This document shows positions 17,958-45,012 of a stretch of 64,000 nt of DNA, piece after piece (position 1 is the first letter of the stretch; each line of letters begins with the position of its first letter). The notes under the pieces were generated by a model that worked only from the letters and a program-made list of their open reading frames with translations, was not told the DNA's origin and made no database searches. This stretch comes from Candidatus Woesearchaeota archaeon (GTDB taxonomy: Archaea > Nanobdellota > Nanobdellia > Woesearchaeales > ARS49): contig JAWAAW010000003.1 in the NCBI GenBank assembly GCA_038884975.1, positions 19,502 through 83,501 on the forward strand. Reading direction: 5' to 3'. Made by a program: the position numbers and the translations under genes.

Positions 17958-17974
17958 AAACAAAAACCACCCGT

Positions 17975-17992
17975 GAATAGTTTATAAAGATT
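17975..17992 (-). promoter_or_regulatory. Recurrent promoter motif CACAATC-TTTATAAA positioned for a leaderless start at 17957
   Basis: The plus strand reads agtttataaagattgtg. On the minus strand the motif reads CACAATCTTTATAAAC; its TATA is centred 27 nt from ATG 17957. The same element recurs at 22446 (TATA 26 nt from ATG 22424) and 37559 (TATA 28 nt from ATG 37537). Confidence 0.4.
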
Positions 17993-18006
17993 GTGTATAC
18001 TTGCAG

Positions 18007-20497: not shown

Positions 20498-21507
20498 AAA
20501 GATTTCTTGGACATGCTTGCAAGCAAAAACCAGCCAAAGCGCTTCTCGTACCAGCGCAAAAGCCGCGACTGATATACTCGTTTCCCCATCACGTACAACT
20601 CAGGAAGCTCCCGCCTATCAACTTTTTGAAGCACAAGCCCTGCTTTTTCAGCCATGTCGCGGAGTTCTCTTGCATTGAAGCTTTTTGTGATTGGATTGAC
20701 CATATTGTCACGAAATACGGTTACCGTGTTTGACTGAGTCTTTGTTTCGCCGCTCCAGAGAGGAGTCAGAGCAAAAATCAGCCTACTGAAAATTCTAGAT
20801 CTTCTGCAGAGATATCGCAGGATTTTTTTTGTGTAATTCCACACACTTGTCTTGTGGTAAACCATAATATGTATTTTGCCTGTAGTCTTTAATGCCCTTG
20901 CAAAATGGTCAAGGCATGCCTGCGGGTTTGGTGTGTGGTGAATGACACCCATGCTTGTAATCATATCGAATGTATTATCCTTGAATGGCAAGTATTCAAG
21001 GTTTCCAATAACGAGATTAGGGACTCTGCCATGCTCTATGAACAATTTTCGGATGTGGTAAAGCGAATTAGGAGTCTGATCAATTCCAATAACATTTGCG
21101 CCCAATAATTCTAACTCGGTATAAAGATGACCACCTCCGCAGCCTGCTTCAAGGGCGTATTTGCCGCGGACATCACTCTCAGCGACATACCATGGTGTTG
21201 TGTTAAGCGTGTGTATGCTGATTTTTTCTGGGTGTTCCATTGCGTCGCGTGCGCCGACAATACCATAAGGGGTCTCGTTAAAAAGCTTTCTGACACCTTC
21301 TTGGAGCGTTTTTCTAGGAGCGTAATAAAGGTCAGGAATCCCGTCTTCCATAGAATATTTTGTGTTGCAGGCGGTACAAGTGAGTTTTGCACGCACTACT
21401 TCCTGCCTGTTCTGCTCAATAATTTCAGTATTTAAGCCACCCCTACACTTTGGGCATGCCAGCAATGAAAGGAAGTCTTTTATCATTTTCGTGAGGGAAT
21501 CAAGCAC
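20491..21507 (-). CDS. SAM-dependent methyltransferase with N-terminal Trm112-like zinc ribbon
   Basis: LACPKCRGGL Trm112-like motif, then a LEAGCGGGH methyltransferase motif I. Confidence 0.65.
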   Translation of the reverse strand: MLDSLTKMIKDFLSLLACPKCRGGLNTEIIEQNRQEVVRAKLTCTACNTKYSMEDGIPDLYYAPRKTLQEGVRKLFNETPYGIVGARDAMEHPEKISIHTLNTTPWYVAESDVRGKYALEAGCGGGHLYTELELLGANVIGIDQTPNSLYHIRKLFIEHGRVPNLVIGNLEYLPFKDNTFDMITSMGVIHHTPNPQACLDHFARALKTTGKIHIMVYHKTSVWNYTKKILRYLCRRSRIFSRLIFALTPLWSGETKTQSNTVTVFRDNMVNPITKSFNARELRDMAEKAGLVLQKVDRRELPELYVMGKRVYQSRLLRWYEKRFGWFLLASMSKKSLW

Positions 21508-22442
21508 CCCTTTAAATCGTTTTCACTATTTTCATTACTATGCGCTATCATCTCGCCCAACAAGCCTGTAGAAAACAATTGCATTCCTACTATAACCAAA
21601 AGCAGAGCGAGAAATAAAAGGGGACGCAATATAATAATATGTTTTATTAACGAGAGATAAGCGAGCACAAGCCCAAGTAGTGTTCCGCTTGCAACGCTGA
21701 GAATTCCAACTGTCCCGAAAAAGTGCATTGGGCGATATTGGTATGTTACTAAATAACGTATTGTCAACAGGTCAAGGAATCCTTTAATAAGTCTTGAAAA
21801 TCCAAACTTGCTTTTGCCATATTTTCTTGCCCTGTGGTGTACTGGAATCTCGGTTACCTTGTAGCCTTTCCAGAAAACAAGGGAAGGAATATACCTGTGC
21901 AGTTCGCCGTAGACTTTCAGATTGTGGGTGACTTCTGCGCGGTATGCCTTGAAGCCGCAATTGGAATCATGCACGGGCACCTTTGTTATTGTGCGCACAA
22001 GCCAATTGAATATTTTTGAAGGAATGCGCTTACCAATCGGGTCGCGCCTCACTTTCTTCCAGCCTGAGACCAAGTCATACCCTTCAGTTATTTTGGCAAT
22101 AAACCTTGGGATCTCATTAGGGTCGTCTTGGAGGTCACCGTCCATTGTAAAGATTATGTCGCCTTTTGCTTCCCTGAAACCAAGATTTAGCGCTGCGGAC
22201 TTGCCAAGGTTCCTTCTGAACCTGAAAACACGCAAATGTTTATCATCATGTTCCATGCGTTCAAGAAGCTCTCCTGTGCCGTCCCTGCTTCCATCATCAA
22301 TGAAAATAATCTCATAAGAATGGCTTGCTTTTTGCAGGACACCACTAAGTTCGCGGTATAACAAAGGAATATTCTGGACTTCGTTGTATACTGGAATTAT
22401 GACTGAAATCACAATTGCCACCATAAAAAAATTAACCGACAT
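21483..22442 (-). CDS. GT2 polyprenyl/dolichyl-phosphate glycosyltransferase (GtrB/ArnC-like) with C-terminal TM helices
   Basis: VISVIIPVYNEVQNI...FIDDGSRDGT GT2 motifs and C-terminal TM helices. An alternative leaderless start is M7 at 22424 (TATA box at 22446-22453). Confidence 0.85.
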   Translation of the reverse strand: MSVNFFMVAIVISVIIPVYNEVQNIPLLYRELSGVLQKASHSYEIIFIDDGSRDGTGELLERMEHDDKHLRVFRFRRNLGKSAALNLGFREAKGDIIFTMDGDLQDDPNEIPRFIAKITEGYDLVSGWKKVRRDPIGKRIPSKIFNWLVRTITKVPVHDSNCGFKAYRAEVTHNLKVYGELHRYIPSLVFWKGYKVTEIPVHHRARKYGKSKFGFSRLIKGFLDLLTIRYLVTYQYRPMHFFGTVGILSVASGTLLGLVLAYLSLIKHIIILRPLLFLALLLVIVGMQLFSTGLLGEMIAHSNENSENDLKGCLIPSRK

Positions 22443-22466
22443 TAGTTTATAAAGGTTGTGCAGTAA

Positions 22467-24059
22467 CTAGTTGCATTCCTGTTTCCACGAGAGCATCTCC
22501 TGCTTGAAAAACAAGTCGTCACTCTTCATAATGTCGTAAGGGGTTATGTTTCCATTTGGATTTCCCTTATAAATATTTAGTATTGGAACACCGTCTGCAA
22601 ATACTGTATAAATCGGCTGGGTGGGAAAAGCATTTAATGTCAATACGTAATTGCCCCCCTCCCCTGTAACGACGTTTAGATCTTTTCTTACATAGTAAAT
22701 TGCGAGGTGTGGGGCTTCAACAACATTTACTGTTGCATTTTTCTCCGCATTTTTGTTTAGCCATTCGATGCCTGCCTTTATAGGCTCTCCCCAATAGCTA
22801 ACCCTGAATTTACCCACAGCACCCTGTGTTCCACCAACAAGCGCGTTATGATAACTGCTCTCGTACGGGTGAAGGCGTGCCATTGCGTTTAATGTGGGCC
22901 AGAGCAGCAGGAGCAGGATGATGCCAAATGCAACCTGCGACTTGACCGGAGAAAGCCGGTTTTTCGCAAAACCATGGAATACCCTGAAGCAGAACCATGC
23001 ACCTATGCCTGCAAGGATTGCGAGCGCAGGAACCACTTCAAAGAACTGACGTATACCATCGTAAACCAATCCTGAAAAACTAATCTTGAGCGTGGCAACC
23101 AAAAACCACACAAGCACAAGCGCTGATGCGCGGTTTTTCAATGAGGCAGTGTCCTTGCATGCTATAAAAAACCCGATTGCAGCCATTATGAGCATGATTA
23201 GCGGAGTGACAACCGCAAGATAGCCGAAGGGATAATGCCAGGGCACATTGACTCCTGACTGATAACCTTGGCCAAAGTAAAATACTACAAAGCCAAGAGC
23301 AACAGTTGAGAATGTCTTAAGAATTCCTTGAATGTGCGCAATCGTGCTGTGCCACAGCCATGGCCACGCAATAATCGTTACTGGAATTGCAATCAGAAAG
23401 CTTGCTAACAAGTCCCAGCGCTTGGAAATAACCAGCTTTCCGTTCTTGCGCCATGAATCACGGAATGCAATAACCCACCACAATACAATTGTTATGGGAA
23501 TGAATGCTGCATTGATTTTTGTTGCACCTGCTAAACCAAGCACAATTCCTGCGCCAATTGACCATTTCCAGCTTTTCCGCAGAGTTGCTTCGTAAAACAA
23601 AATGATTGCGATTGTGTAAAGCCCCGCCATTGGGACATCCTTAACATTGAAATGAGCATGGGCAAAGAAATGTGGGTAAATTAAAAGGAACAATGCACTT
23701 GAAATTGCAACAAAAAGATTGTAGTTTCTAAGAGTGAAAAGATAAACCACAAGAACGGCAAGGGCAGCGAGTAATGCTACAGGTATGCGGTGCGCAGTAA
23801 TTGGGTCGGTCCAGCCAAGATTCTTGCTGAAAACTATGTACGAATACGCTCCAAGGATATCTACGAATGGGCCGTAATTTGCCACATTTGAAATGTTTCC
23901 AACCACAAGCGGCTTTCCGCTGAAATAATTTGCGTACGCTATTCCTGAAGTGTACTGTATCGGCTCATCCCACGTGATTCCATAATCAGGAATCTGGACA
24001 ATAAGGAACAAAAAGTAAGCAATGCTGATTACAATACCTAGCAGTGTCTCTTTTTTCAT
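22467..24059 (-). CDS. GT-C-like polytopic membrane glycosyltransferase (ArnT/PMT-like)
   Basis: 530 aa. The first loop has YGITWDEP (a DE motif). Multi-TM with a C-terminal soluble domain. Confidence 0.65.
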   Translation of the reverse strand: MKKETLLGIVISIAYFLFLIVQIPDYGITWDEPIQYTSGIAYANYFSGKPLVVGNISNVANYGPFVDILGAYSYIVFSKNLGWTDPITAHRIPVALLAALAVLVVYLFTLRNYNLFVAISSALFLLIYPHFFAHAHFNVKDVPMAGLYTIAIILFYEATLRKSWKWSIGAGIVLGLAGATKINAAFIPITIVLWWVIAFRDSWRKNGKLVISKRWDLLASFLIAIPVTIIAWPWLWHSTIAHIQGILKTFSTVALGFVVFYFGQGYQSGVNVPWHYPFGYLAVVTPLIMLIMAAIGFFIACKDTASLKNRASALVLVWFLVATLKISFSGLVYDGIRQFFEVVPALAILAGIGAWFCFRVFHGFAKNRLSPVKSQVAFGIILLLLLWPTLNAMARLHPYESSYHNALVGGTQGAVGKFRVSYWGEPIKAGIEWLNKNAEKNATVNVVEAPHLAIYYVRKDLNVVTGEGGNYVLTLNAFPTQPIYTVFADGVPILNIYKGNPNGNITPYDIMKSDDLFFKQEMLSWKQECN

Positions 24060-25039: not shown

Positions 25040-25132
25040 GTGATTATCTGCCTTTAAGCTCTTTTTATATTTTTGCTTTTAAAATTTCTTATAATAGGCA
25101 AATATTTAAACTTCATATTGCTGCACATTGGT

Positions 25133-27001
25133 ATGAAATTTCGTTTGGCGAATGCAATTTTTTTGTCATTAACTCTTCTTCTATTCCTTGTGTTTCTCAG
25201 CAGCTCTTTTGGCCGGCCAGGATATTTATCAATGTTTGGTGCCAAGGGTGAGCTTAGGCTGTGTTCTGAATATCTGCGCGAGGGGATAATCTTTCGGGAT
25301 CAGCCGTACTGTTGCCAAGGCGGCATAATAACCTATGCATTCGTGCTTGTGCTTCGCATGCTTGCCGGAGGAGCATTCTCAAACATTCTTTATTTCTGCG
25401 TTGTACTGCTGCTCAACCTGCACGCACTTTTTCTGCTTCTTAGGATTATCCAGCACGAGACCGGCAAGACCGAGTATTTTCTCACAGGAATTTTTTACTT
25501 GTTGACAATTTACATTTTTGGCGGCAACATCACCACTTTTTTGACAGCATATTTCAGTATAACTGGTTTTTATGTACTTTGGCACTCAAAGCTAAAGTAT
25601 AGAGATATCTTGGGTCCTGTGCTGTATGCGTGCGCCTTGTTTTCTAAGGCGACAGCAATGCCTGTTGTATCATTTCTTGCAGGTCATATGGTGTTCATGG
25701 CATTTCAGCCGCATATTGAATCAAGAAAAATTGTGTTCAAAAAAGACTGGCGCAGCGCAGGCGTTCGCTTGCTCAGCTTTGGAGTGATTCTTGCACTTGT
25801 GTTCCTGCTATTTCCGGGAAGCTGGGTATATGAATTCGGCAACCAAGGCAGCCGCTTGCAGGAAAGCGTGCAAGTACAGTTACAGCAATTGCTTGACAGC
25901 CTTGTCCTTAATTCAGGAACAATGTTCTTTGGGCTTATTTTCTTGCTTTCTGTCATTGCCTTTTTTTTCCTACGCGATGTGTATTCAGCTGCTACAGTAT
26001 TTTCCATTGCTGTGCTCTTCTGGGTGTTGTTCGGCCAACGCGGGCTTGCGACTGACAATGGATTGATGTTTGCAATAAACCGCATAGACTACTATCTAGC
26101 ATCTTATCCTTTCTTTATTGTAGCTATGGCAAAGCTTAAGCACAAGCTCAATAACAAGATGCAATTGAAGTGGGGTGTTGGAATACTTCTTGCGCTGTTC
26201 TTGGCAACTACAATACAGTTTATTTCGGCTGACAGGGATATTCGTCTGATGGAGGAAAGATTCAAGAGTGCACTCTCGCTGATTCCTCCCCAAGAGGATT
26301 ATGTCTTGACTGAAGACCCCCTTGGAGATATTCTTATTGATAAGTATTATGACCCAAAAGCGAAGATTGATGTCATTCCACATTACAATGTGTGGAAAGA
26401 GGGAGTTCTTCCGGATGGCAATTTTTACCGCAAAATGGATGAACTTGGTGTCACTAATTCAAGCGCATGGATGCTTCCGCAGCCACAGCAAGAATGGAAT
26501 GTATTGTTCAGCAAATTGCTAAATGATACGTATTCGATTATTTTTATCAATGTCCCCCAGAAGATAACATTGATGCGAATGATTCAGAATGCGCCTAATG
26601 TTGCTAACTATTGTGTGGTTTTGCTTCCTGACCTGCAGTTCCATACACACGAAGGCGACGTGGCACTTATACTCTTATTCCAAGACAAAAAACGTTGCGA
26701 ACAAATGATGCCAAAAATCAAACAGTATTATGAAGCTTCTTTTGCTGACATTTGCAAAAGAAGCCCTGTAGTAGCAAACAATATTGTGAGGAATGTTCTT
26801 GGACAAGAGGGAATTACGCTTCCAGAATGCAAGGGAACAGCAGACTCTTTGCTGTTCTTTAACCGCAAAAGCGCAAGATTGAGGCTTTCATCAATCCTGT
26901 TGGCTGCACTGCTTACCTGGATTGTCTGGATTGGTAATATCCCAAGAATGCGTTTTTCCTCACCCGGAGAATCTCACAGAACATCCTCCAAGAATCCCTG
27001 A
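25133..27001 (+). CDS. Large polytopic membrane protein, possible GT-C-like glycosyltransferase
   Basis: About 620 aa, multi-TM with an approximately 250-aa C-terminal soluble domain. The ORF track start (25073) leaves only 33 bp of divergent spacer; M21 (25133) is preferred. Confidence 0.45.
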   Translation: MKFRLANAIFLSLTLLLFLVFLSSSFGRPGYLSMFGAKGELRLCSEYLREGIIFRDQPYCCQGGIITYAFVLVLRMLAGGAFSNILYFCVVLLLNLHALFLLLRIIQHETGKTEYFLTGIFYLLTIYIFGGNITTFLTAYFSITGFYVLWHSKLKYRDILGPVLYACALFSKATAMPVVSFLAGHMVFMAFQPHIESRKIVFKKDWRSAGVRLLSFGVILALVFLLFPGSWVYEFGNQGSRLQESVQVQLQQLLDSLVLNSGTMFFGLIFLLSVIAFFFLRDVYSAATVFSIAVLFWVLFGQRGLATDNGLMFAINRIDYYLASYPFFIVAMAKLKHKLNNKMQLKWGVGILLALFLATTIQFISADRDIRLMEERFKSALSLIPPQEDYVLTEDPLGDILIDKYYDPKAKIDVIPHYNVWKEGVLPDGNFYRKMDELGVTNSSAWMLPQPQQEWNVLFSKLLNDTYSIIFINVPQKITLMRMIQNAPNVANYCVVLLPDLQFHTHEGDVALILLFQDKKRCEQMMPKIKQYYEASFADICKRSPVVANNIVRNVLGQEGITLPECKGTADSLLFFNRKSARLRLSSILLAALLTWIVWIGNIPRMRFSSPGESHRTSSKNP

Positions 27002-27656
27002 AAAAGCGAAGCTTGCTTGCAGGGTCATTAGCCCATTCCACAGGAACCTCCTTTATCCTGTATCCACACTGGTAGGCAATGAACAGAATTTCCGCATCAA
27101 ATGCCCAACGCTCAAGGCGCTGCTTCGAGAAAACATCTTTTGCAACTTTTTTGCTGAACAGCTTAAACCCGCACTGTGTATCCTTGATAGGCAACGCGAG
27201 AAGAACGCGGACAACAAACGGAAATGTTTTGCCTGCAAGCTGGCGGAACTTTGGCTGCTTTATTGTAATCTGAGACTGTGCAAGGTTTCTTGAGCCGATT
27301 ATTATGTCATAATCCTTCATGTACTTCAGGAATTTGTCAAATTCGCGCATTGGGGCTGACATGTCTGCATCAGTGAACAGCAGCCAGTCGCCTTTTGCAC
27401 TCAGCATTCCCTGCCTGACCGAGTAGCCTTTGCCGCGGTTTGGGCCGTGTTCAAGCAGCTTTATGCGTCTGTTGTTCTTCATTGCGGCTTTCACAATATT
27501 TTTTGTTCTGTCCCTGCTACCATCATCAACAACAAGAATTTCATAATCCCAATTCTTACGCTTTAGATAATTTTGAACTTGCTTAAGCGCATTGGGAAGG
27601 CGCTTCTCCTCATTGTATGCCGGAATAACCACCGAGATTTTCATTGCTTCCTCCAC
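26913..27656 (-). CDS. Glycosyltransferase family 2 (dolichyl-phosphate sugar synthase-like)
   Basis: MKISVVIPAYNEEKRLPNAL...ILVVDDGSRDRT. Its 3' end overlaps the convergent gene at 25133..27001 by 89 nt. Confidence 0.85.
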   Translation of the reverse strand: MEEAMKISVVIPAYNEEKRLPNALKQVQNYLKRKNWDYEILVVDDGSRDRTKNIVKAAMKNNRRIKLLEHGPNRGKGYSVRQGMLSAKGDWLLFTDADMSAPMREFDKFLKYMKDYDIIIGSRNLAQSQITIKQPKFRQLAGKTFPFVVRVLLALPIKDTQCGFKLFSKKVAKDVFSKQRLERWAFDAEILFIAYQCGYRIKEVPVEWANDPASKLRFFRDSWRMFCEILRVRKNAFLGYYQSRQSR

Positions 27657-27967
27657 AGCACAACAAGGCCGATGATTCCCAATGCATAGCCGAGCACAGG
27701 CCTGATTGAAGGAATGCCTATCAGGCTTGGGAAATAAAGTATCAGGGCAACAATGCTTGAGCCAAGGAAGAATCCGATAATTATTTTTTCAAGCTCGTGC
27801 AGGTCAGGCATCAGCAAGTGCACCAACGCAACACCGGGCAGTAGCCAGATTCCAGCCAATGTTAGCGTCAGCCTGAGCGCATCGCCTGCAGAGCGCGTGA
27901 AATACATCATTAGCGCCAGAATCAATATGACCGTTCCGAAAATGTATTTCAAGAGCTTCATATGCAC
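27641..27967 (-). CDS. Small 3-4 TM membrane protein (paralogue of 30228..30620)
   Basis: 108 aa and hydrophobic. Shares W..LPG.AL, IIG and ILWRK/ILWWK blocks with 30228..30620. Sits between a GT-C-like gene and a GT2 gene. Confidence 0.5.
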   Translation of the reverse strand: MHMKLLKYIFGTVILILALMMYFTRSAGDALRLTLTLAGIWLLPGVALVHLLMPDLHELEKIIIGFFLGSSIVALILYFPSLIGIPSIRPVLGYALGIIGLVVLWRKQ

Positions 27968-29568
27968 CCCCCCTGATGCGCATTCTTCAGGATAACCATT
28001 TGCGGAGTGTTGTACACGACTGATGCATTCTTGGCAAGCAGGTTTTGCAATATCTGATTGAATACTGCAAGACTTTCCTGCGTTGATGGCCTGAATGCAA
28101 AATAATCAAATGTGCAGATATCACGCGTGTGATCTCCAAGAGCCCCGCGCTTTCTATAATTCAGGAAGCCCTTGCGGTATATGCGTTCATCGGTGTAGCC
28201 GACAATCTGTATGCGCAATGGTGTGTTGTTCTTGTTTGCTATTTGAAGGAGCTGCTCCGCCCCATCCTGCTCCCAGAATGCTGCCTGCGCAGAAACCCTG
28301 TGCGAGGAAGTGCTCTCCAATTGGTTGCAGCCAAAGCAAAGCAGTGTTGCGTTTTCAGGGGTGTTCTGGCGAATCCAGAGAAAGCCTTTGTAAATGTCCT
28401 CTGTATACAATGAGCCGCCCAATCCCTGGACATTACTTGCGGCATATGCCTGTCCAGCAATAACCAATGCGATCATGCAACCAAAAAAGACCTGCTTGCT
28501 TACCGGCACAAAGCGGCGCACAACATTCGCAACACTATATAGACCGATTGCCACAAGTGGATATGCTACTATGAAAAAAATCGGCCTGCCACGTATCGCA
28601 ACATAATACGTCCCAATGCCGAACTTGGCAAGGATGAAGATAATCAGGACATATGCGAAGAAAGCATAATTTAGCAGGCGGTATTCTTTGTTTTTCCAAG
28701 TAACTATCAATGCAATCAGTACAAGCACCCAAAGAACCGGGCTGAGTACGTTTGTAAGGAAGATCTGAGGCTCGTGGCTAGGTGGGCTTAGTTCACCTTT
28801 CTGTATAAATGTGGCGCCCTGATGCCCCTGCAGGTAATTAAAGAATAATGGCGGCAGATATGGAAGGCACATCAGCACAGCTAATGCTCCTGCAACGACA
28901 AGACGCTTCCATCCAACGTTCTTCAACTCAAAGAAAACTAAATATGAACTAACAACCGCTCCTGAAACAATTGCCTCGCTGGCGTGCATGTTAAATTGCG
29001 ACACTAGCGCAAAAACAAGCAACAACGCATTAGGCCATGATGGCTTTTTGATGAGCTCATAAGTGAAGAGGAGTATCATTGGGAAATAAAGGGTTGTAGA
29101 AAATGTTGCATACATCCCAATATTTATTTGATAATGAAAGAATTTCTCCAGTGGGAAAACCAGCAGTCCTGCAGCCAGAAGCCCAAGAATCCTGTTCTGG
29201 AAGACGCGTGAGAACAGCACAAAGAAACACAATGCACTGCCGATTGAAGCAAGCACTGCATTTAAATAAAATACGTCAAAAACTTTTAGTCCTGATGCGC
29301 CAGCAACCATTGCAGCAAGAATCAAGTTTAGTGGAGGTTGAGTGGTAAGAAGGTCTTTCTCGCCAGTAAACCATGGAGGCATAAACTTTACACTGCCAGA
29401 CTCAAGAACATATTCTGCCTCGCTAAGCCTTGAGTTTGGGTCTCCTGCATTTATTGTTACGGGATAATCGTGGACAATTTTTCCTTCATAAGGAGCGTAC
29501 CTTGCAAAAAAACCAATGCAAACTATTGCAATAATCGCAATGATTGTGAATAATTCTTCCCGTTCCAT
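27958..29568 (-). CDS. GT-C-like polytopic membrane protein (paralogue of 30595..32226)
   Basis: 536 aa, multi-TM. The C-terminus (...QMVILKNAHQGGCI) and internal blocks (YKGFLWIRQNTPE) align with the protein at 30595..32226. Confidence 0.55.
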   Translation of the reverse strand: MEREELFTIIAIIAIVCIGFFARYAPYEGKIVHDYPVTINAGDPNSRLSEAEYVLESGSVKFMPPWFTGEKDLLTTQPPLNLILAAMVAGASGLKVFDVFYLNAVLASIGSALCFFVLFSRVFQNRILGLLAAGLLVFPLEKFFHYQINIGMYATFSTTLYFPMILLFTYELIKKPSWPNALLLVFALVSQFNMHASEAIVSGAVVSSYLVFFELKNVGWKRLVVAGALAVLMCLPYLPPLFFNYLQGHQGATFIQKGELSPPSHEPQIFLTNVLSPVLWVLVLIALIVTWKNKEYRLLNYAFFAYVLIIFILAKFGIGTYYVAIRGRPIFFIVAYPLVAIGLYSVANVVRRFVPVSKQVFFGCMIALVIAGQAYAASNVQGLGGSLYTEDIYKGFLWIRQNTPENATLLCFGCNQLESTSSHRVSAQAAFWEQDGAEQLLQIANKNNTPLRIQIVGYTDERIYRKGFLNYRKRGALGDHTRDICTFDYFAFRPSTQESLAVFNQILQNLLAKNASVVYNTPQMVILKNAHQGGCI

Positions 29569-29569
29569 C

Positions 29570-30262
29570 TTAATCCTTAAAACGACATTTTATGAGGCAA
29601 TACAATGCCTTTATTCCATCGCGCCAATTAATTTTTTTGCCCTCATTCCACTTTCTTGGGCAATAAACGATTGGAACTTCAATTATTCTAAAGCCTTTCT
29701 TAAGTATTTTTGCTGTTATTTCAGGCTCTATTTCAAACCTGTTTGCCTTTAAGTTCAGTTTTTGTAAGACTTCCTTCGTGAACATCTTGTAGCAAGTTTC
29801 CATATCACTTACCCACTGGCCATAAAGCAGTGTTGTGACAAGTGAAAGAAACCTGTTACCAACATAATGCGTTGGAATTGCAACTGCCTGATAGCTAAAA
29901 GGCCTTCCCTTGAACCTTGAGCCATAAACCACATTTGCTTTGCCCTCAAGAATTGGCTTAAGCAGTTTTGCAAATTCGTTGGGATCATACTCAAGATCAG
30001 CATCCTGTATCGTGATTATGTCACCTGTTGCGTGCTCAAAACCAGTGCGCAATGCAGCACCCTTCCCCCTGTTTCTCGTATGATACAAAATCCTGACACC
30101 TTTCAGCTTTTGCAGGACGTCTCTTGTTCCATCTGTAGAGAAATCATCAACAATAATTATTTCTTTCTCAACAGGCAGTCTTGCGTCCTGCACGCGCTTC
30201 ACGATTTTGCCGACTGTTTTAACTTCGTTATACACCGGAATGATTATTGTCAGTTTTTTCAC
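29570..30262 (-). CDS. Glycosyltransferase family 2
   Basis: MKKLTIIIPVYNEVKTV...IIVDDFSTDGT. Confidence 0.85.
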   Translation of the reverse strand: MKKLTIIIPVYNEVKTVGKIVKRVQDARLPVEKEIIIVDDFSTDGTRDVLQKLKGVRILYHTRNRGKGAALRTGFEHATGDIITIQDADLEYDPNEFAKLLKPILEGKANVVYGSRFKGRPFSYQAVAIPTHYVGNRFLSLVTTLLYGQWVSDMETCYKMFTKEVLQKLNLKANRFEIEPEITAKILKKGFRIIEVPIVYCPRKWNEGKKINWRDGIKALYCLIKCRFKD

Positions 30263-30620
30263 TTTTCCACCACAGTATTATTCCAATAATTATGCTGAAT
30301 AATGGCAATATAAATCCATGCGTTGCCACGTGCCAGCCGAGCAAACCTGCATAATAACTTGCAAGACCAAACACAGCTGCCTGCACTGACACACCGATTA
30401 TAAACCTTTCCACAAACCCTTGCTTGGAACACAATGACAAAGCATAGCCGGGCAGGACAAACATCCAATAAACACTGGCAGTTGTGCGCAGCAGGGTTAC
30501 GACGGCGGTGTTCTGGAATGCAATAATGAATACAATAACCAGCGCAACATACCCAAGTGCAAGCCATTTCAGTTCTTTTATGATTTCTTTTTTGTCAGGC
30601 AATACACTCACCCCCGACAT
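30228..30620 (-). CDS. Small 4-TM membrane protein (paralogue of 27641..27967)
   Basis: 130 aa with four hydrophobic segments and blocks conserved with 27641..27967. Overlaps both neighbours. Confidence 0.5.
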   Translation of the reverse strand: MSGVSVLPDKKEIIKELKWLALGYVALVIVFIIAFQNTAVVTLLRTTASVYWMFVLPGYALSLCSKQGFVERFIIGVSVQAAVFGLASYYAGLLGWHVATHGFILPLFSIIIGIILWWKSEKTDNNHSGV

Positions 30621-32226
30621 TATTGTTCTTTAGGATAACAATTTGGTCGTTTTGGAATACTGGGGTTGCATTATGATTTATGATAACGCTTCCAAGCTGT
30701 GCAGCAATCTGAACAAGTTGTGGTGCGTATGCGCTCTGGCGGTCAACAACATAATAATCAAAACCGCAAATGTCCATCGGAGCACCAAATATGGTCAAGT
30801 TCTGTTCTTTTCCATAAAATCCAAAGTCAAAAAGGTTTTTGCGGTAAATCAAATACATCTCACTCACCAGGATCGGCTCTGTCTTTATCATACGGCGAAA
30901 TCTTCCTTCCTGAGCCATTGCAACAAAGTCATTCGGGTCCAACAGGAAGACCAATCGCTGAATCAGCCTCAGACTCTGGCTATAGCCGTCGCCATACAAG
31001 AAAAGTATTCTTGACCGTTCAGGGGTGTTTTGCTCAACCCACTTAAAACCTTCCCACTGACCGTCATAAATCATGTCAGGATGCATTGGCATATGGTAAG
31101 AATGTACAAAAAAAGCAGCAATGGCTAAAGCAAGTATTGCGGGGACAATGACACCTCCCTTGTGGAATTGCTTAAGCACAAAATAAACAGCAATGCCGAA
31201 AAAAAGGGCAAGATATATTGGCCATAGGAACCTTGTTTGGAATGCGCGGTAATGCAATCCAATGTAGTTTGAAAGCCCTACAAGGAGCATGAATCCCAGT
31301 GCAAGGAGCGCAGTATGAGGTTCTTTGCGAACAAGAAGCAAGGCAAGCATTGCGCCTATTATTATTGCCCACATTGCAAACATTTTGAAATCATTCAATG
31401 GCGGAACCTGAATTGCGCCGAATTCCTCAGGACTCATTGGCCTTAATGACGTATATGCTTCGCCCGTAATCTTATAGTAACCATTGTAAAATATGATTAA
31501 GTAATTGAAAGAGAGTGCAAGCGCAAGAATTGTGGCAAAACCAAGCTGTTTAAGCCACCATTTCAGCTCTGATTTTGTAAGCTTTTTCAGCAAGAACTTG
31601 ACTGCAAGAAAGAATACTACAAACCCATAAAAAAATATTGCTTCGCTGGTGTGCGTGCTCATCACTGCGCCAATAAGTATCCCTGCAGGAACCCACCAGT
31701 GCTTAAGTTCAGGCCTGCTCATCATAAAGAAGAGCGCGATAAGGAAAAAGCTGCCTCCATAAAGAAGAGCTTCGCCCCACGTATAACCAATGATAAATTT
31801 GTAAACGTAAAGGAACACAAAAAGCGGCGCTGCAAGCATTGCGACAGACTTGTTATAACTTCTTATTAGCCAATAAACAATGAAGGCGCCAAAAATCGCA
31901 CACAATGCCATAATGAGCGATAATGCATCGTGCGCTTTCAAGCCACTAATGTGAGAAAATGCGGCAGTAATATGCATCATTAGTGGCGGATGATACGCTA
32001 TTGAGTCATTAAAGCCTGCAACGCTGTAGAAAGGGTTATAACGGAAGTTTCCTGTCTCAGCAACATGCCGCGTCAGCATCACGTACAAAAACCCATCAGT
32101 TGCGCCAAACTGCACTGGCTTTTCGTGTTTGAGCTGATGCTGAAAAACCTCTCCAGGACCAATGTAAAGAAGGCAGCCAAAAACAATTATCAGGAAAATA
32201 ATCTCAATAAGGTTTTCTCGGTTCAT
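30595..32226 (-). CDS. GT-C-like polytopic membrane protein
   Basis: 543 aa, multi-TM. C-terminal domain ...QIVILKNNNVGGECIA is paralogous to the protein at 27958..29568. Confidence 0.55.
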   Translation of the reverse strand: MNRENLIEIIFLIIVFGCLLYIGPGEVFQHQLKHEKPVQFGATDGFLYVMLTRHVAETGNFRYNPFYSVAGFNDSIAYHPPLMMHITAAFSHISGLKAHDALSLIMALCAIFGAFIVYWLIRSYNKSVAMLAAPLFVFLYVYKFIIGYTWGEALLYGGSFFLIALFFMMSRPELKHWWVPAGILIGAVMSTHTSEAIFFYGFVVFFLAVKFLLKKLTKSELKWWLKQLGFATILALALSFNYLIIFYNGYYKITGEAYTSLRPMSPEEFGAIQVPPLNDFKMFAMWAIIIGAMLALLLVRKEPHTALLALGFMLLVGLSNYIGLHYRAFQTRFLWPIYLALFFGIAVYFVLKQFHKGGVIVPAILALAIAAFFVHSYHMPMHPDMIYDGQWEGFKWVEQNTPERSRILFLYGDGYSQSLRLIQRLVFLLDPNDFVAMAQEGRFRRMIKTEPILVSEMYLIYRKNLFDFGFYGKEQNLTIFGAPMDICGFDYYVVDRQSAYAPQLVQIAAQLGSVIINHNATPVFQNDQIVILKNNNVGGECIA

Positions 32227-33320
32227 TCCACTGCCCTCAAAGCATCATTGACACTAATTCTTTTTATGCATTCGTGATTATCAGGACACTTGATAAGCAT
32301 TCCGTCAATATAGCAGGGCTTTTTGTTTGGATGCTTCCACAGGTACTTGTCTTTTGGTCCTCTTGGAGCAAGCTTTATGGGGTCTGTAGGGCCAAAGATT
32401 GCCGTTACCGGCGTATTTACTGCTGATGCGATGTGCATTAAGCCAGAGTCATTGCAGACAAGGCGCCTGCACCTCTTGATAAGCGCGGCTGTTTTTCTCA
32501 AGGATGTTTTTCCTGTGGCATCAACAGCATTTGGAACTCGCTCTTTTACGATTTCTGCAGCATCAATGTCATCAGGGCCACCAACAAGAAGTATCTGAAA
32601 GCCGCGCTTTGAAAGCCTCTCAGCCAGTTTAGCAAACCTTTCAGCAGGCCATCGCTTGATGTTCAAGGTCATTCCCGGATTTTTTGCACCACCAGGAGCA
32701 ATGGCAATTGTTCTGGCAGGATTGAGTTTGTGCTTCCTGAAAAACATTCTTGCAAACCTTTCCTCATCATTAGTTAGAAATAGCTCAATTTCTTTCTGAC
32801 AAATGCTTTTTGAACCCACAACCCTTGCAATTTCCAGATAGGAATCCACATCGTGCATGCGTTTCCCATAAGGCGCGTTAAGCGTGTTCGGGAAACCCTC
32901 GCCATTGCGGTCAAATCCAATTCTTATTGGAACTTTACAAAGCGTTCCAAACATGTTAGCAAGATAAGAAAAATCAAGAATAATCATCAAGTCATATTTC
33001 TCATTCCTTATCTTTCTGGCAATATTATTTATTGCAATCAGGTTTTTCTTGTAGAAAGGACGCTCATTAAAAGAAATTACCCTGTCAATATGCGGGTTGT
33101 TCTCAAGGACGGGTGCAGACCACTCACCCACCCAATAATCAATCCTTGCCCTTGAAAATCTCTTCCTCAATGCTCTTAGTAGAGGGGTCGTCATTAAGAC
33201 ATCACCGATAGCACCAGTCTTGAAAATGCAGATTTTTCTGACCATGCTAAAATCAGGCATTTTAGCAGGCAAGATTTTCCTTATCCTACTGCCTATTCCA
33301 ACAATTGCGCGCTTTATCAT
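32223..33320 (-). CDS. Glycosyltransferase family 9 (heptosyltransferase-like)
   Basis: ICIFKTGAIGDVLMTTPLLRALRKRFSRARIDY, RWPAERFAKLAERL and NDSGLMHIASAVNTPVTAIFGPTDP are all GT9 signature blocks. Confidence 0.85.
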   Translation of the reverse strand: MIKRAIVGIGSRIRKILPAKMPDFSMVRKICIFKTGAIGDVLMTTPLLRALRKRFSRARIDYWVGEWSAPVLENNPHIDRVISFNERPFYKKNLIAINNIARKIRNEKYDLMIILDFSYLANMFGTLCKVPIRIGFDRNGEGFPNTLNAPYGKRMHDVDSYLEIARVVGSKSICQKEIELFLTNDEERFARMFFRKHKLNPARTIAIAPGGAKNPGMTLNIKRWPAERFAKLAERLSKRGFQILLVGGPDDIDAAEIVKERVPNAVDATGKTSLRKTAALIKRCRRLVCNDSGLMHIASAVNTPVTAIFGPTDPIKLAPRGPKDKYLWKHPNKKPCYIDGMLIKCPDNHECIKRISVNDALRAVE

Positions 33321-34264
33321 TACAATTCCTGCCTTAGCTCTTCTGCGCTTACGCTCGCAGTACCAATCTTGCCAACCTTTATTCCTGCTGCCTGATTTGC
33401 AATGATTGAGGCGTCCTCAAGCGATGCGCCGCTCACAAAAGCCAGAGCAAATGCCGCAAGGAAAGTGTCTCCGGCACCAGTAACATCAAAAACCTGCTTT
33501 GCCTTTGTCGGAATATGAGTAGTGGTCCCCTCTTTGCCAAAAATGCTGACGCCTTTTGCACCACGCGTGATTATCACGTGAGAATTAAGGTCTTGAACAA
33601 GCCTCTTGCCAATTTCCTCAATCTGGTCACCGTTGTGTTCCTCAACACCCACAAGCTCACACGCTTCCTTATTATTCGTCTTAACAACAGTGGCGCCAGC
33701 ATAATTAATCTGCCTCCTTGGCTTGACGTCAACAAATACAGGCACTTTTAGAGCCTCAGCCAGATGAAGGATGTCATTGTACAATTGCTGGGTAATAATC
33801 CCTTTTGCATAGTCAGAAATTATTATCCCATCGCAAGGGGTGTCCTTGATGACGTCAAGAATCTTCTTGCCAGTCTCGTCATCAATCGGGTGCTTGTATT
33901 CATAATCAATACGTGCGAGCTGTTGTTTAATCCCCATTACCCTGATTTTCGTGGTCGTGGGGCGATTATCAAGAATGAGTTGGGAGGCAATCCCGCGCTG
34001 TTCAAGCTCTTTTATCAAGATGTCCTTGTGCATGTCGTCTCCAACCATTCCAACAAGCACTGCCCTGCCTCCAAGCGAGACGATATTGTTCGCAGCATTT
34101 GCGGCACCGCCAGGAGCATAAGTCTCGCTTTGCACTTCAACAACAGGAACAGGCGCTTCTGGAGAAACCCTTGAAACATTCCCCCAAATATACCTGTCAA
34201 GCATGACATCGCCAAGGACAAGAATTGTTTTTTCTTTAAACCGGTCAATTATTGATTTGTCCAT
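33320..34264 (-). CDS. hldA: D-glycero-beta-D-manno-heptose-7-phosphate kinase (HldE domain I / HldA-like, PfkB family)
   Basis: ILVLGDVMLDRYIWGNVSRVSPEAPVPVV almost matches the RfaE domain I signature, and the C-terminus has DVTGAGDTF. Confidence 0.85.
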   Translation of the reverse strand: MDKSIIDRFKEKTILVLGDVMLDRYIWGNVSRVSPEAPVPVVEVQSETYAPGGAANAANNIVSLGGRAVLVGMVGDDMHKDILIKELEQRGIASQLILDNRPTTTKIRVMGIKQQLARIDYEYKHPIDDETGKKILDVIKDTPCDGIIISDYAKGIITQQLYNDILHLAEALKVPVFVDVKPRRQINYAGATVVKTNNKEACELVGVEEHNGDQIEEIGKRLVQDLNSHVIITRGAKGVSIFGKEGTTTHIPTKAKQVFDVTGAGDTFLAAFALAFVSGASLEDASIIANQAAGIKVGKIGTASVSAEELRQEL

Positions 34265-34318: not shown

Positions 34319-34813
34319 CTATTTCCTTGCTGCAGAATTGTAAATCCTGTTAATGATGTTTGTTGTGGAGTCAGGACGGAATGAGACTATCCTTACTTCC
34401 CCACCGTGCTTTCTTACAATTGGTGTTTCAACCATTTTTTCAGGATCATAATCATCACCCTTCACGTGAACGTGCGGCTTCACCTGCTCAAGAAAAGCGC
34501 GCGGGTCTGTCTCGTTGAAAATAGCAACATAATCAACCATTTCAAGAGCAGCAAGAATCTCAGCACGCTGGTCCTGCGGAAACACAGGCCTTGTCGGACC
34601 CTTCAACTTGCGTGTTGACTCATCAGAATTAATACCAACAAAAAGAACGTCACCTTGCTGCTTGGCGAGCTTGAGAAATCCCACATGACCTATGTGCATC
34701 AAGTCAAAAATGCCATTAGTAGTAACTATTTTCTTACCCTGCTTTTTCAGTTCCTCAGATACTTTTGCAAGTTCTTCCCACGAAATAACTTTTCCCATGC
34801 GCAGAACAAGCAA
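34319..34813 (-). CDS. hldC: D-beta-D-heptose 1-phosphate adenylyltransferase (HldE domain II / HldC-like)
   Basis: KIVTTNGIFDLMHIGHVGFL...VGINSDESTRKLKGPTRPV is the cytidylyltransferase-fold HxGH motif and matches the HldE C-terminal domain. Confidence 0.85.
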   Translation of the reverse strand: MLVLRMGKVISWEELAKVSEELKKQGKKIVTTNGIFDLMHIGHVGFLKLAKQQGDVLFVGINSDESTRKLKGPTRPVFPQDQRAEILAALEMVDYVAIFNETDPRAFLEQVKPHVHVKGDDYDPEKMVETPIVRKHGGEVRIVSFRPDSTTNIINRIYNSAARK

Positions 34814-34845: not shown

Positions 34846-35412
34846 TTATTTTGCAAATGCAGAATCAATAAGCTTGCACCAAACGTGAATTATCATGGTG
34901 TGGCATTCCTGAATCCTTGCTGTAATGCCTGAAGGAATAATTATGCAGTCTGGCAAGCACTTCATTTTTCCACCATCCCTGCCGGTGAGACCAATAATTT
35001 CCATTCCCCTGTTTTTTGCAGCATCTATTGCTTTCAGGATGTTTGGAGAGTTTCCTGAAGTGGAGATCGCAACAAGAACATCACCTTTGTTGCCCAATGC
35101 GTCTATCTGCCGTGCAAATACAGAATCAAATCCATAATCATTCCCTCCTGCACTGAGACTGCTCGTGTCTGTTGTCAATGCAATTGCAGGAAGGGCGCGG
35201 CGTTCCTTTTCAAACCTTACAACAAGCTCTGCTGCAAAGTGCTGAGAGTCAGCTGCAGAGCCGCCATTGCCGCACACAAGGATTTTATTGCCATTCTTCA
35301 GGGCAGCTATCAGAACGCTTGCTGTCTTTTCTATGGACGGAACCAGCTTGGCAAGAACTTCCTGCTTCGTACTGATTGAGTCCTGAATTTGTTGCCTAAT
35401 AATGTCTTGCAT
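34846..35412 (-). CDS. gmhA: Phosphoheptose isomerase (sedoheptulose-7-phosphate isomerase, SIS domain)
   Basis: ILVCGNGGSAADSQHFAAEL...ISTSGNSPNILKAIDAAK is collinear with GmhA. The ATG at 35412 (MQDIIRQQ) is the preferred start; the ORF track extends to 35445. Confidence 0.85.
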   Translation of the reverse strand: MQDIIRQQIQDSISTKQEVLAKLVPSIEKTASVLIAALKNGNKILVCGNGGSAADSQHFAAELVVRFEKERRALPAIALTTDTSSLSAGGNDYGFDSVFARQIDALGNKGDVLVAISTSGNSPNILKAIDAAKNRGMEIIGLTGRDGGKMKCLPDCIIIPSGITARIQECHTMIIHVWCKLIDSAFAK

Positions 35413-36511
35413 GCAACAACCTCCTTGCCTTTTGCAATACATCATCCACGCTGATTAATGACATGTGCCTATGACCTTTGCAGTCAGGAATCTGTCCCTT
35501 GTGCACGTTAATGCACGGCCTAGGCAGGACAGGCTTGTAAACAAAATCATTACCAGGACCATAAGGAGCCCAGCGCACAGGCGTGTTTGGACAGTAAAGC
35601 CCAAGCGTGGGAGTTCCCATTGCTGCAGAAATATGCACAGGACCAGAATCATTGCTAATCGTGAGAGCAGCCCGGGAGACCATAGCTGCCTGCTGCTTCA
35701 AATTAAGCTCGTAAGCATCTGATACTGGAGGATGCTTCATTTTACTCGCAACAGCATCAACAAATTCCTTTTCTGAACGACCGCTCATAAGGACAATCTT
35801 AACAAGAAACTCCTTTACAAGGGCGTCTCCCACAGCGGCAAAACGCTCAGGAGCCCAGATTCTTCCGCGTGACGATGCGCCTGCTGCAGGGCAAAGAACC
35901 ACAAACCTGTCGCCTGGCTTGATTCCGCGCTCCTTCAGGAACAGGGCTGCCTTTTTTTTGTCATCAGCACTCACTGCCAGCGGAACAAGACGTTCAGGAA
36001 CGTGAGTCACGCCAAGAGGACCCATAAGGTCAATGTACGTCCTGACCATGTGCTGGTTGTCATTGAAAATAACCCTGTCGGTGTAAAGAAGATGTCTTAT
36101 GCTATGCGAAAATCCGACACGACGCTTTCCAAGCCACCACGCAAGAAGAGCAGACTCGTTCAAGTAAGGCTCTGCATCAACAACAACATCATACCTCCTG
36201 AGCCTTGGAATAAGAGCCAATAATCCTTTTGGTTCTGCGCTCATTATGCTGTCAATGAATTTCAAGCCCTCAAAAACGCTCTTGACGCGGTCCCTGCAAA
36301 GAACATCAATCCTTGCCTTTGGGTATTTTCTCCTGAGCTCCTTAATTGCTGGCAACAAGACAATGCTGTCGCCCAAAGCCCACAGTTTTATTACGAGTAT
36401 TTTTCCTGTCGTGAGCTTTGATTTTGGAAACAGCAATGAAAAAAACCAGATAGGCAGTATTAGGACTGCGCCAATTATACGGTCAATCCAGCGAAGAATT
36501 GCAGTCTTCAT
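35396..36511 (-). CDS. Glycosyltransferase family 9 (heptosyltransferase-like)
   Basis: ILVIKLWALGDSIVLLPAIKELRRKYPKARIDVL and TISNDSGPVHISAAMGTPTLGLY are GT9 blocks. Confidence 0.85.
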   Translation of the reverse strand: MKTAILRWIDRIIGAVLILPIWFFSLLFPKSKLTTGKILVIKLWALGDSIVLLPAIKELRRKYPKARIDVLCRDRVKSVFEGLKFIDSIMSAEPKGLLALIPRLRRYDVVVDAEPYLNESALLAWWLGKRRVGFSHSIRHLLYTDRVIFNDNQHMVRTYIDLMGPLGVTHVPERLVPLAVSADDKKKAALFLKERGIKPGDRFVVLCPAAGASSRGRIWAPERFAAVGDALVKEFLVKIVLMSGRSEKEFVDAVASKMKHPPVSDAYELNLKQQAAMVSRAALTISNDSGPVHISAAMGTPTLGLYCPNTPVRWAPYGPGNDFVYKPVLPRPCINVHKGQIPDCKGHRHMSLISVDDVLQKARRLLHARHY

Positions 36512-36846
36512 TTGCGCCTTGGCAGCCTCACTGCAACCTCCCTAACAAGTTTTGTTATTTCCTGACTCTGCTTTTCCTGATTCACATAAATCCTGAACAC
36601 AAGATAAAAGAGCAGAAGGATGCTGATGTAAACAGCAAGGTCAATCGGCCTGCTAATTCCAAAAAACTTGGAAACAATGTCTGCTGTCTGAGGCAAAAGG
36701 ACAGTAGTAATAACTGCAGCCCAAATTATTGTCCAAAAGCTGAACTCACCAATTGAAATCTCCCTGTCTCTCAAACGGAGAATTGCCCTGCTCCACGCAA
36801 ACAATGCAAAAATCACAACAATGACCTGCAATGGGGTAATATTCAT
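36508..36846 (-). CDS. Small 3-TM membrane protein (DUF2304-like family often found next to GT2 genes)
   Basis: 112 aa, three hydrophobic helices and a basic C-terminal tail. Immediately downstream of a GT2 gene, 4-nt overlap. Confidence 0.45.
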   Translation of the reverse strand: MNITPLQVIVVIFALFAWSRAILRLRDREISIGEFSFWTIIWAAVITTVLLPQTADIVSKFFGISRPIDLAVYISILLLFYLVFRIYVNQEKQSQEITKLVREVAVRLPRRK

Positions 36847-36850
36847 TTTT

Positions 36851-37537
36851 TCACCTCAACAAAAACTTTTTCATAATCATATTGTACAGGATGCGGCATC
36901 CTTCTGCAAAGGAACCATGACCCTTTCTTAATGTTTCTTCTGTGTAGCGGATTACAACAGGAACCTCCTTATACTTGAGATTGTTCCTGCGCACTTCCTC
37001 AACAATTTCTGACGCGTGGGCCATGCGGTCAGAAGTAATCTTGATTTTTTCAGCAGCATTTCTTGAAATTGCTCGGAAGCCATTGTGCGCGTCAGTCATT
37101 TTGACACCATAAAACAACCAAAGAACAAGAACGCCTATTTTGAGAAGAATTTTCCTGACAAAAGGAATACCAGAATCCTTTTTGAGAAACCTTGAACCAA
37201 AAGTAACGTCCACCTCACCACTCACAACAGGCTTTATGACAGCAGGAATGTCCTCAACACGATGCTGACCGTCAGCATCAAAAGTAACAATAACATCCGC
37301 ACCTTGCTCCAGAGCATAATCAATTCCCGTCTTTAATGCAGCTCCCTGTCCCCTGTTGACAATATGTTGCAATACTGTCGCGCCTGCACTCAGAGCAGCA
37401 TCGAATGTTTTGTCTTTGCTGCCATCATCAATAACAACCACGTTCTTGTATCCTGCACTGTGAAGTTCTTTCACTACATCAGAAATAGAATTCTCCTCAT
37501 TATATGCTGCAATCACGATAAAAACATTGTTTCCCAT
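36851..37537 (-). CDS. Glycosyltransferase family 2
   Basis: VFIVIAAYNEENSI...VVVIDDGSKDKT. The ATG at 37537 lies about 28 nt from a TTTATTAA box at 37562-37569. The ORF track starts at a TTG (37543). Confidence 0.85.
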   Translation of the reverse strand: MGNNVFIVIAAYNEENSISDVVKELHSAGYKNVVVIDDGSKDKTFDAALSAGATVLQHIVNRGQGAALKTGIDYALEQGADVIVTFDADGQHRVEDIPAVIKPVVSGEVDVTFGSRFLKKDSGIPFVRKILLKIGVLVLWLFYGVKMTDAHNGFRAISRNAAEKIKITSDRMAHASEIVEEVRRNNLKYKEVPVVIRYTEETLRKGHGSFAEGCRILYNMIMKKFLLR

Positions 37538-37554
37538 TGCCAAAAAAAGAGCAG

Positions 37555-44182: not shown

Positions 44183-44256
44183 ACCAACAGCTTTAAAAAT
44201 ACCACTCAATAGTAAAAACAAGTAACATTCACTAAAACCACAGGGGGTAACAAAAA

Positions 44257-44979: not shown

Positions 44980-45012
44980 TTTTTTTTCAGATTTTGAGAT
45001 TATTGGTGAGGC

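Follow-up and report, generated by a model that had tools for sequence, protein, structure and literature searches.

The decoration of glycans outside the cell with sugars carried on polyprenyl phosphates is a well-known strategy; to our knowledge, both the route by which the lipid-linked donor reaches the GT-C glycosyltransferase and the possible use of accessory subunits by prokaryotic GT-Cs are poorly understood. Among the closest described systems, those of the Gtr type consist of the flippase GtrA, the GT2 enzyme GtrB, which synthesizes undecaprenyl-phosphate-glucose (Und-P-Glc), and a GT-C transferase (GtrC or Gtr*), and a broader class of such systems has been reported by Kelly et al. 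2024 (PMC11127046). In Haloferax volcanii, AglD, AglR and AglS complete the N-linked glycan with its last mannose once it has been transferred by AglB (PMC3871713). Further systems to be compared are GacI/GacJ/GacK/GacL of Streptococcus pyogenes, where GacJ is a DUF2304 protein, and PpgS/Rv3632/Rv3779 of Mycobacterium tuberculosis (bioRxiv 10.1101/180810). The present work deals with six minus-strand genes in a 64,000-nucleotide (nt) stretch of contig JAWAAW010000003.1 from a Candidatus Woesearchaeota archaeon (GCA_038884975.1), a stretch hereafter called the window. These genes form two paralogous modules, each with a GT-C-like membrane protein (GTC_A, GTC_B), a small protein with four transmembrane (TM) helices (sm_A, sm_B) and a GT2 protein (GT2_A, GT2_B). 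The unit that is conserved and inherited together is the dyad of the GT-C and the small protein, often present as a paralogous pair.

The six open reading frames (ORFs) were found exactly where a preliminary description of this DNA had placed them. In the order of transcription, they encode GTC_A (543 amino acids (aa), 30595..32226), sm_A (130 aa from the first ATG, 30228..30620), GT2_A (230 aa, 29570..30262), GTC_B (536 aa, 27958..29568), sm_B (108 aa, 27641..27967) and GT2_B (247 aa, 26913..27656). Overlaps of 26 nt (GTC_A and sm_A), 35 nt (sm_A and GT2_A), 10 nt (GTC_B and sm_B) and 16 nt (sm_B and GT2_B) suggest that these genes are translationally coupled. A protein 99% identical to sm_A (P0001) is annotated by NCBI as 124 aa long. 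The nearest proteins in the databases are 99-100% identical and belong to a metagenome-assembled genome of Candidatus Woesearchaeota. BLASTP aligned GTC_A and GTC_B over their full length with 26% identity (E = 9e-20), and the shared C-terminal blocks pointed out earlier fall within this alignment (WEGFKWVEQNTPE/YKGFLWIRQNTPE and ILKNNNVGGECI/ILKNAHQGGCI). The small proteins, in which shared blocks had also been noticed, are 27% identical (E = 5e-6), and GT2_A and GT2_B are 29% identical (E = 1e-24). Among the 523 six-frame ORFs of the window, the large and the small proteins each match only their own paralogue, and a hidden Markov model (HMM) of the small family made without sm_B recovers sm_B at E = 3.9e-10, with no other match in the window below E = 1. 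At the DNA level no repeat links the two modules, only chance matches of 20-27 nt, which indicates that the duplication is ancient. A recent duplication was ruled out by this absence of a repeat together with the presence of orthologues of both dyads at three other loci (L001, L005 and L007 in our numbering).

For the comparison of loci, contigs encoding members of the small family were combined with a scan in which each GTDB species was represented by one genome, and 47 species-level loci resulted. The scan used the pattern [LIF][YF]W[MLI]FV[LI]PG, from the closer alignment, and the taxonomic range found is a lower bound. All 47 loci belong to metagenome-assembled genomes (MAGs) labelled as archaeal, and the informative labels are Woesearchaeota, Nanoarchaeota, Nanoarchaeia and one Aenigmarchaeota, all of them DPANN. 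A census of ORFs and HMM matches covered about 60 modules from about 50 loci. Wherever upstream DNA was available, the small gene was found, without exception, directly 3′ of a large ORF on the same strand. These large ORFs encode proteins of 450-600 aa with 6-11 TM helices, they usually overlap the small gene by 4-40 nt, and most of them match the GTC profile (1e-28 to 1e-258). An independent check seeded from relatives of the GT-C gave the same picture, since all four cases were followed by an overlapping gene for a protein of 119-147 aa. Loss or pseudogenization of the small genes in orthologous loci, which the preliminary description had named as telling against the module, was not observed: they are intact in every one.

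The conservation does not extend to the GT2 gene. A GT2 lies directly 3′ of the small gene only in the window, in its close relatives L001/L006, L005 and probably L007, and in L048, that is, in four or five of the roughly 50 loci. Moreover, 23 of 49 loci show no GT2 within about 5 kilobases, several of these having incomplete flanks. Directly after the second dyad, a GT2 was identified in the window alone among the loci examined, and the place of GT2_B is taken by a GT9 gene in L001. The idea of a conserved three-gene triad was therefore not upheld by synteny, and the triad is a lineage-specific elaboration of the dyad. The two members of the dyad have also diverged in parallel: the pairwise identities of GT-Cs and small proteins correlate with r = 0.889 over 60 complete dyads, a value reached by none of 2000 Mantel permutations, and A-type small proteins always accompany A-type GT-Cs, as B-type ones accompany B-type GT-Cs. 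In 28 of 52 loci two dyads are direct neighbours, usually in convergent orientation and, in the lineage of the window, in tandem. The tandem duplication described before thus holds for the paralogy of all pairs and understates an older pattern of paired dyads, either tandem or convergent, a recurrence that hints at a functional relationship between A and B. It is from the census, the parallel divergence and the side-by-side dyads that the GT-C and small protein dyad was recognized as the conserved unit.

Some further features of these loci may be mentioned. The second dyad usually abuts the first one tail to tail (L002, L008, L017, L025, L039, L045, L052 and L053, among others), and its large protein is often too divergent for the A or B profile; even so, a multi-TM ORF of about 105-120 aa with at least three predicted TM helices comes after its gene. 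The related loci also hold GT9, epimerase, methyltransferase and heptose-pathway genes. Around half of the carrier MAGs, which are GTDB species representatives, were deposited as 'uncultured Methanosarcinales archaeon' (L006, L008, L011, L013 and others). L006, which bears this label, is the same contig as L001, with orthologues of the A dyad 54-71% identical to those of the window, and the label is probably a placeholder or wrong.

The small proteins belong to a new family, present in neither Pfam nor NCBIfam, which is real and sizeable. Neither sm_A nor sm_B matched any family of the two collections, and 28 diverse members gave no match to GtrA (PF04138), SMR or DUF2304 (PF10066) among the families listed at E <= 1, so that the earlier view of a different, unnamed family has been confirmed. 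At 50% identity, 395 clusters reach E <= 1e-3, and the 150 listed members are all stand-alone proteins of 79-190 aa. The family shows the motif W(L/M)F(V/I)LPG(Y/F), and in a set of 201 sequences P57, G58, Y89 and P106 each reach a conservation of at least 95%, while position 16 is acidic (E or D) in 92% of the members. An AlphaFold2 model of sm_A (predicted local distance difference test (pLDDT) of 87.5) contains four helices (10-34, 40-64, 69-93 and 98-127). Under the positive-inside rule both termini would be cytoplasmic (N-in/C-in), and the conserved E16 falls at the cytoplasmic boundary, flanked by lysines and outside the membrane interior. No similarity was found between sm_A and Pyrococcus furiosus dolichyl-phosphate-mannose (Dol-P-Man) synthase (PfDPMS, 5mlz), so homology to its C-terminal four-TM domain was not detected, nor was any sequence or structural similarity of sm_A to subunits of oligosaccharyltransferase (OST). 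Weak matches to N-terminal TM regions did appear, in eight of the 28 members for DUF1616 (best E 3.4e-4) and in four of the 28 for DUF6541 (best E 7.6e-4, profile positions 3-72, unlike the match of GTC_B to DUF6541, which covers positions 166-489); P0062 and P0072 are among the proteins concerned. Such matches may be the sign of a distant fusion relative. A single long relative was retrieved for DUF6541 (P0216, 644 aa), with nothing more at its N-terminus than an extension of low complexity, and none of 33 GT-C relatives was matched by the HMM of the small family.

As for the large proteins, GTC_A has about 11 TM helices, with an extracytoplasmic alpha/beta domain of some 160 aa at its C-terminus. 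Its AlphaFold2 model, predicted from 24 homologues (pLDDT 87.5, predicted template modelling score 0.87), clearly adopts the GT-C fold. The multi-TM core superposes on solved GT-C enzymes, and Foldseek matched the model to STT3, AglB, PglB and ArnT at about 1e-8, with PIGU, a non-enzyme derived from GT-C, also among the structural matches. The fold of GTC_A thereby bears out the GT-C-like identity proposed for the large proteins, which did not turn out to be transporters. At the level of families, Pfam gave GTC_A a PMT_2 match below threshold and none to DUF6541 (PF20176). GTC_B, called 'DUF6541 family protein' by NCBI, is assigned through its paralogy with GTC_A and through PF20176, against which it scores 35.4 bits for a gathering score of 29, and its orthologues, 35-66% identical, carry the PF20176 annotation. 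No match of GTC_A or GTC_B to STT3 (PF02516) was obtained at E <= 0.1. DUF6541 is a family without assigned function, for which no publications were found in a literature search. The residue D44 of GTC_A is invariant across the 24 homologues, including GTC_B (motif GA.DG / NAGDP), and the model places it in the first loop, between helices 3-27 and 43-58, where it would be the catalytic acidic residue of the first extracytoplasmic loop. Two cysteines of the C-terminal alpha/beta domain, C487 and C541, are invariant as well.

The GT2 proteins of both modules have no TM helix and match PF00535 (2.6e-38 for GT2_A and 1.1e-31 for GT2_B). In NCBIfam they come closest to AglJ, PgfS, PpgS and ArnC, with scores far under the equivalog cutoff of each model, and AglJ is the best one for GT2_A (3e-39, under its cutoff). 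The nearest solved structure is in both cases PfDPMS (1.2e-18 for GT2_A and 8.5e-18 for GT2_B), followed by ArnC for GT2_A, and by GtrB (sll0501, 1.2e-16) and ArnC for GT2_B. The 5mlz construct has 374 aa and aligns to GT2_A and GT2_B over its residues 24-230 only. Judged by these relatives, GT2_A and GT2_B belong to the clade of polyprenyl-phosphate-sugar synthases (GtrB/DPM1/ArnC), in agreement with the type first assigned to them. The 3′ end of GT2_B overlaps by 89 nt that of a convergent ORF (25073..27001, plus strand), which encodes a 642-aa multi-TM protein with no family match and is the sole large plus-strand gene of this part of the window.

As with Gtr systems, the window modules encode together a GT2 of the polyprenyl-phosphate-sugar synthase clade, a GT-C and a small multi-TM protein, which would carry out the addition of single sugars outside the cytoplasm from a lipid-monophosphate donor. 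However, the small protein belongs to none of the GtrA, SMR and MATE families, and its gene is locked to the GT-C and not to the GT2. The GT2s lack the two C-terminal TM helices of GtrB, the gene order is GT-C, small protein and GT2, most of the related modules have no GT2, and the host is an archaeon, so that the carrier would be dolichol. From the GtrA/B/C-like logic formerly suggested, the GT2 clade and the GT-C fold are retained, whereas a GtrA- or SMR-type small flippase and a conserved three-gene unit were not found. The resemblance to AglD/AglR/AglS, the precedent among archaea, lies in an AglB-linked cluster and in a pathway where Dol-P-Man, made by a GT2, is translocated and serves a transferase that depends on it and that adds the sugar to the protein-bound N-glycan outside the cell. 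In Haloferax, however, AglR is Wzx-like and not a four-TM mini-protein, no small partner has been described for AglS, and there is one such step as compared with the five to eight candidate GT-Cs of the window cluster.

The Gac and PpgS systems also combine a TM-less GT2 synthase, a small membrane protein in complex with a pathway enzyme (as proposed here for the window) and a GT-C transferase. But GacJ and other DUF2304 proteins have three TM helices, partner the GT2 and are sometimes fused to it, whereas sm_A and sm_B have four, partner the GT-C and were found in no fusion. A GT-C-fold catalytic subunit accompanied by small TM partners is known from OST, where STT3 works with Ost4, OST2/DAD1, Ost3/6 and Ost5, and paralogous GT-Cs are paired in the Pmt1-Pmt2 heterodimer. 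For the window such partners are a proposal, sm_A does not resemble the OST subunits, and the GTCs are not STT3 proteins by Pfam. With respect to DUF6541, GTC_B passes the family score and GTC_A does not, and the partnership with a small protein is mentioned in no family description. A literature search yielded no description of a pairing between a GT-C and a small four-TM protein. What is new as compared with the known systems is the family of the small component, the GT-C as its partner, the module of dyads and paired dyads, and the DPANN host.

With moderate confidence, we favour a model in which the small protein is built into the GT-C as one of its subunits and is not a partner of the GT2; it would stabilize the enzyme or help to form the site for the lipid donor. 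The reasons are that the small gene always stays with that of the GT-C, that its product diverges in step with the GT-C, that the small gene is independent of the presence of a GT2, and that the other TM-less GT2s of the cluster use DUF2304 or need no protein of this kind. The most likely pathway involves two ancient paralogous dyads, each made of a GT-C gene translationally coupled to the gene of a dedicated four-TM partner of about 110-130 aa. The GT2s, as their family membership suggests, would load a sugar onto dolichyl phosphate (Dol-P) at the cytoplasmic face. The resulting Dol-P-sugar would get to the outer face, and each GT-C, in complex with its own small partner, would then transfer the sugar to a glycan outside the cell, a step that we infer from the GT-C fold, the invariant aspartate of loop 1 and the extracytoplasmic C-terminal domain. 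The two dyads could catalyse consecutive steps or form a hetero-complex. The acceptor glycan could be either protein-bound, as for AglD/AglR/AglS, or still lipid-linked before AglB acts, as in the lumenal phase of the eukaryotic ALG pathway. In the lineage of the window, a TM-less GT2 of the DPM1/AglJ type follows each dyad.

Several observations weigh against the small protein as a GT-C subunit. Shared ancestry alone would make neighbouring genes diverge together, so that r = 0.89 speaks for co-inheritance as a unit and not for a function. No natural fusion between the GT-C and the small protein appeared in about 50 loci, 33 GT-C relatives and the 150 listed small-family proteins. The conserved residues of the small protein lie on both membrane faces and do not single out an active site at the outer one. 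Finally, the small gene overlaps the start of the GT2 as well in the lineage of the window, where a link to the GT2 is possible.

Another explanation, possible though on balance doubtful, is that the small protein acts as a dedicated flippase or scramblase of Dol-P-sugars, a functional analogue of GtrA, of the SMR-type ArnE/F or of Rv3789, which would supply its own GT-C with the lipid-linked donor. With about 115 aa and four TM helices, N-in/C-in, the small protein is like GtrA and SMR proteins in size and topology, and, apart from one Wzx-like gene, the gap-free glycan cluster around the modules has no recognizable flippase for up to eight GT2/GT-C pairs. Known three-component systems use the unrelated families MATE, SMR and GtrA (PMC11127046), so a new family would not be unprecedented, and the acidic residue at position 16 could be counted in favour of such an activity. 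However, this residue sits among lysines at the cytoplasmic boundary and not within the membrane, the 28 diverse members matched neither GtrA, SMR nor DUF2304, and the other GT2/GT-C pairs of the cluster have no such protein. The linkage is also the opposite of that in Gtr systems: in these, the flippase accompanies the GT2 and it is the GT-C that varies, whereas the small gene of the dyads keeps strictly to the GT-C and diverges with it. The flippase role originally attributed to the small protein thus found no positive evidence, and both the strict coupling and the correlation between the two proteins point to a GT-C partner. A combined and rather unlikely version is that the small proteins are Dol-P-sugar translocators or donor-loading subunits docked to their own GT-Cs in a channelled 'flip-and-transfer' machine, with paired dyads working as a hetero-complex (cf. 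Pmt1-Pmt2) that would extend the N-glycan outside DPANN cells. If true, with five to eight GT-Cs next to AglB, this 'flip-and-transfer' machine would be an archaeal counterpart of the ALG phase in the lumen of the eukaryotic endoplasmic reticulum.

It is quite improbable that the small protein serves as an anchor or activator of the TM-less GT2, in the manner of DPM2/DPM3 for human DPM1, of GacJ/Rv3632 for GacI/PpgS or of a split TM domain of PfDPMS. Such a role would fit the lack of TM helices in GT2_A and GT2_B, the start of each GT2 inside the 3′ end of the small gene and the restriction of the PfDPMS alignment to the GT2 part, as this enzyme has a C-terminal domain of four TM helices about the size of the small protein. 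There is also a precedent in GacJ, a small membrane protein that stimulates a GT2 (bioRxiv 10.1101/180810). The distribution of genes argues otherwise: the GT2 is adjacent in so few loci, the small gene never occurs without an upstream GT-C, the cluster already has a pair of GT2 and DUF2304 genes, a TM-less GT2 at 14378 lacks a small partner, and the small protein has no similarity to 5mlz. Least probable of all, the GT-C-like proteins would not be transferases of Dol-P-linked monosaccharides, and would rather transfer or polymerize oligosaccharides, like OST or O-OST/ligase enzymes, or be GT-C derivatives that lack transferase activity, for example PIGU/GAB1; the small protein would then be comparable to the accessory subunits of the OST complex. 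STT3, AglB and PglB are indeed among the top structural neighbours, together with PIGU, and the eukaryotic OST uses several small membrane subunits. Nevertheless, Pfam detects no STT3 in either GTC, a bona fide AglB is already present in the cluster, the invariant loop-1 aspartate argues for catalysis, and the neighbouring GT2s, like Dol-P-sugar synthases, fit monosaccharide donors.

In any case, the compact and strictly conserved pairing of a GT-C with a four-TM protein offers a testable candidate for a new GT-C subunit or lipid-sugar translocator, and the unit worth studying would be the dyad and not the triad. For annotation, wherever a small ORF overlaps a DUF6541-like gene at its 3′ end, this ORF should be taken as a real gene. 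The locus also suggests that some DPANN archaea, with their small genomes and their reliance on the cell surface in contacts with the host, invest heavily in the tailoring of glycans outside the membrane, next to AglB. The function that we infer for the dyads concerns uncultivated organisms.

The two modules are part of a glycan cluster that runs without gaps over 445-42994, with AglB at its head on the minus strand; since AglB heads it and genes of an ADP-heptose pathway are present, it is probably an N-glycan or surface-glycan locus. AglB (38303..41728, minus strand) is an STT3 protein (PF02516, 1.2e-31) fused to a C-terminal FKBP domain (PF00254, 1.7e-20). The fusion of an OST to a prolyl isomerase is unusual; this architecture (1109 aa, with FKBP of the peptidyl-prolyl isomerase type) also occurs in L002 and L003. 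The N-terminal cytoplasmic tail of AglB carries four copies of D-D-(E/D)-(L/I)-S-(I/F)-D-F-(S/G)-(K/R)-(I/V)-x-x-W-(F/V)-(T/K)-K. A DPM1-like GT2 is the next gene after AglB, followed on the minus strand by a TM-less GT2 of 230 aa (36851..37543), which is the first gene of a pair with a DUF2304 small membrane protein of 112 aa (36508..36846, PF10066 at 1.4e-23). By its families, this pair (36508..37543) is a synthase/activator couple of the GacI/GacJ or PpgS/Rv3632 type in an archaeon, and it is kept beside AglB in L001 and L002.

Between this pair and GTC_A, also on the minus strand, the genes come in the order GT9 heptosyltransferase-like gene (35396..36511), GmhA-like SIS isomerase (34846..35445), cytidylyl/adenylyltransferase (34319..34813), PfkB sugar kinase (33320..34264) and a second GT9 heptosyltransferase-like gene (32223..33320). 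A third GT9 heptosyltransferase-like gene lies at 7068..8147 (minus strand). In terms of sequence families, this set looks like an ADP-heptose-type pathway, with no GmhB-like phosphatase identified, and suggests a heptose-containing archaeal surface glycan. The cluster also holds AsnB, epimerases and methyltransferases, and a Wzx-like flippase (Polysacc_synt, 5560..7062, plus strand), the only recognizable flippase-family gene in it.

Downstream of the modules, the minus strand encodes two GT2s (17025..17963 and 21483..22442) that are GtrB-like, each having two TM helices at its C-terminus, and two GT-Cs of the PMT/PMT_2 families above the gathering score (18821..20497 and 22467..24059), with two methyltransferases within 17025..24059. 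A third TM-less GT2 (14378..15127, minus strand) overlaps directly a PMT_2-like GT-C (12583..14388, minus strand; PMT_2 just under the cutoff), with no small protein between them. The eight GT2 genes counted in the preliminary description were all recovered with PF00535 (at 37588, 36851, 29570, 26913, 21483, 17025, 14378 and 9851). Of its eight GT-C-like genes, five have support: GTC_A by its fold, GTC_B by paralogy and DUF6541, those at 22467 and 18821 by PMT/PMT_2, and that at 12583 by PMT_2 below the cutoff. The other three (25073 on the plus strand, 10949 and 3744) encode multi-TM proteins without a significant family match, for which hhalign against a GT-C profile gave no informative match. 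AglB is a further GT-C beyond these eight, and the locus is, as had been stated, unusually rich in pairs of GT2 and GT-C.

Next to the cluster, a block of plus-strand genes (43076..49706) encodes proteins with N-termini resembling signal peptides or membrane anchors, which makes them candidate surface proteins. Among them, a protein of 254 aa contains DIDFGGF/DIDAGGF repeats and one of 826 aa contains Ig-like repeats. N-X-S/T sequons, as counted in the neighbouring secreted proteins, are few. The same block shows a strong positive AT skew of about 0.2.

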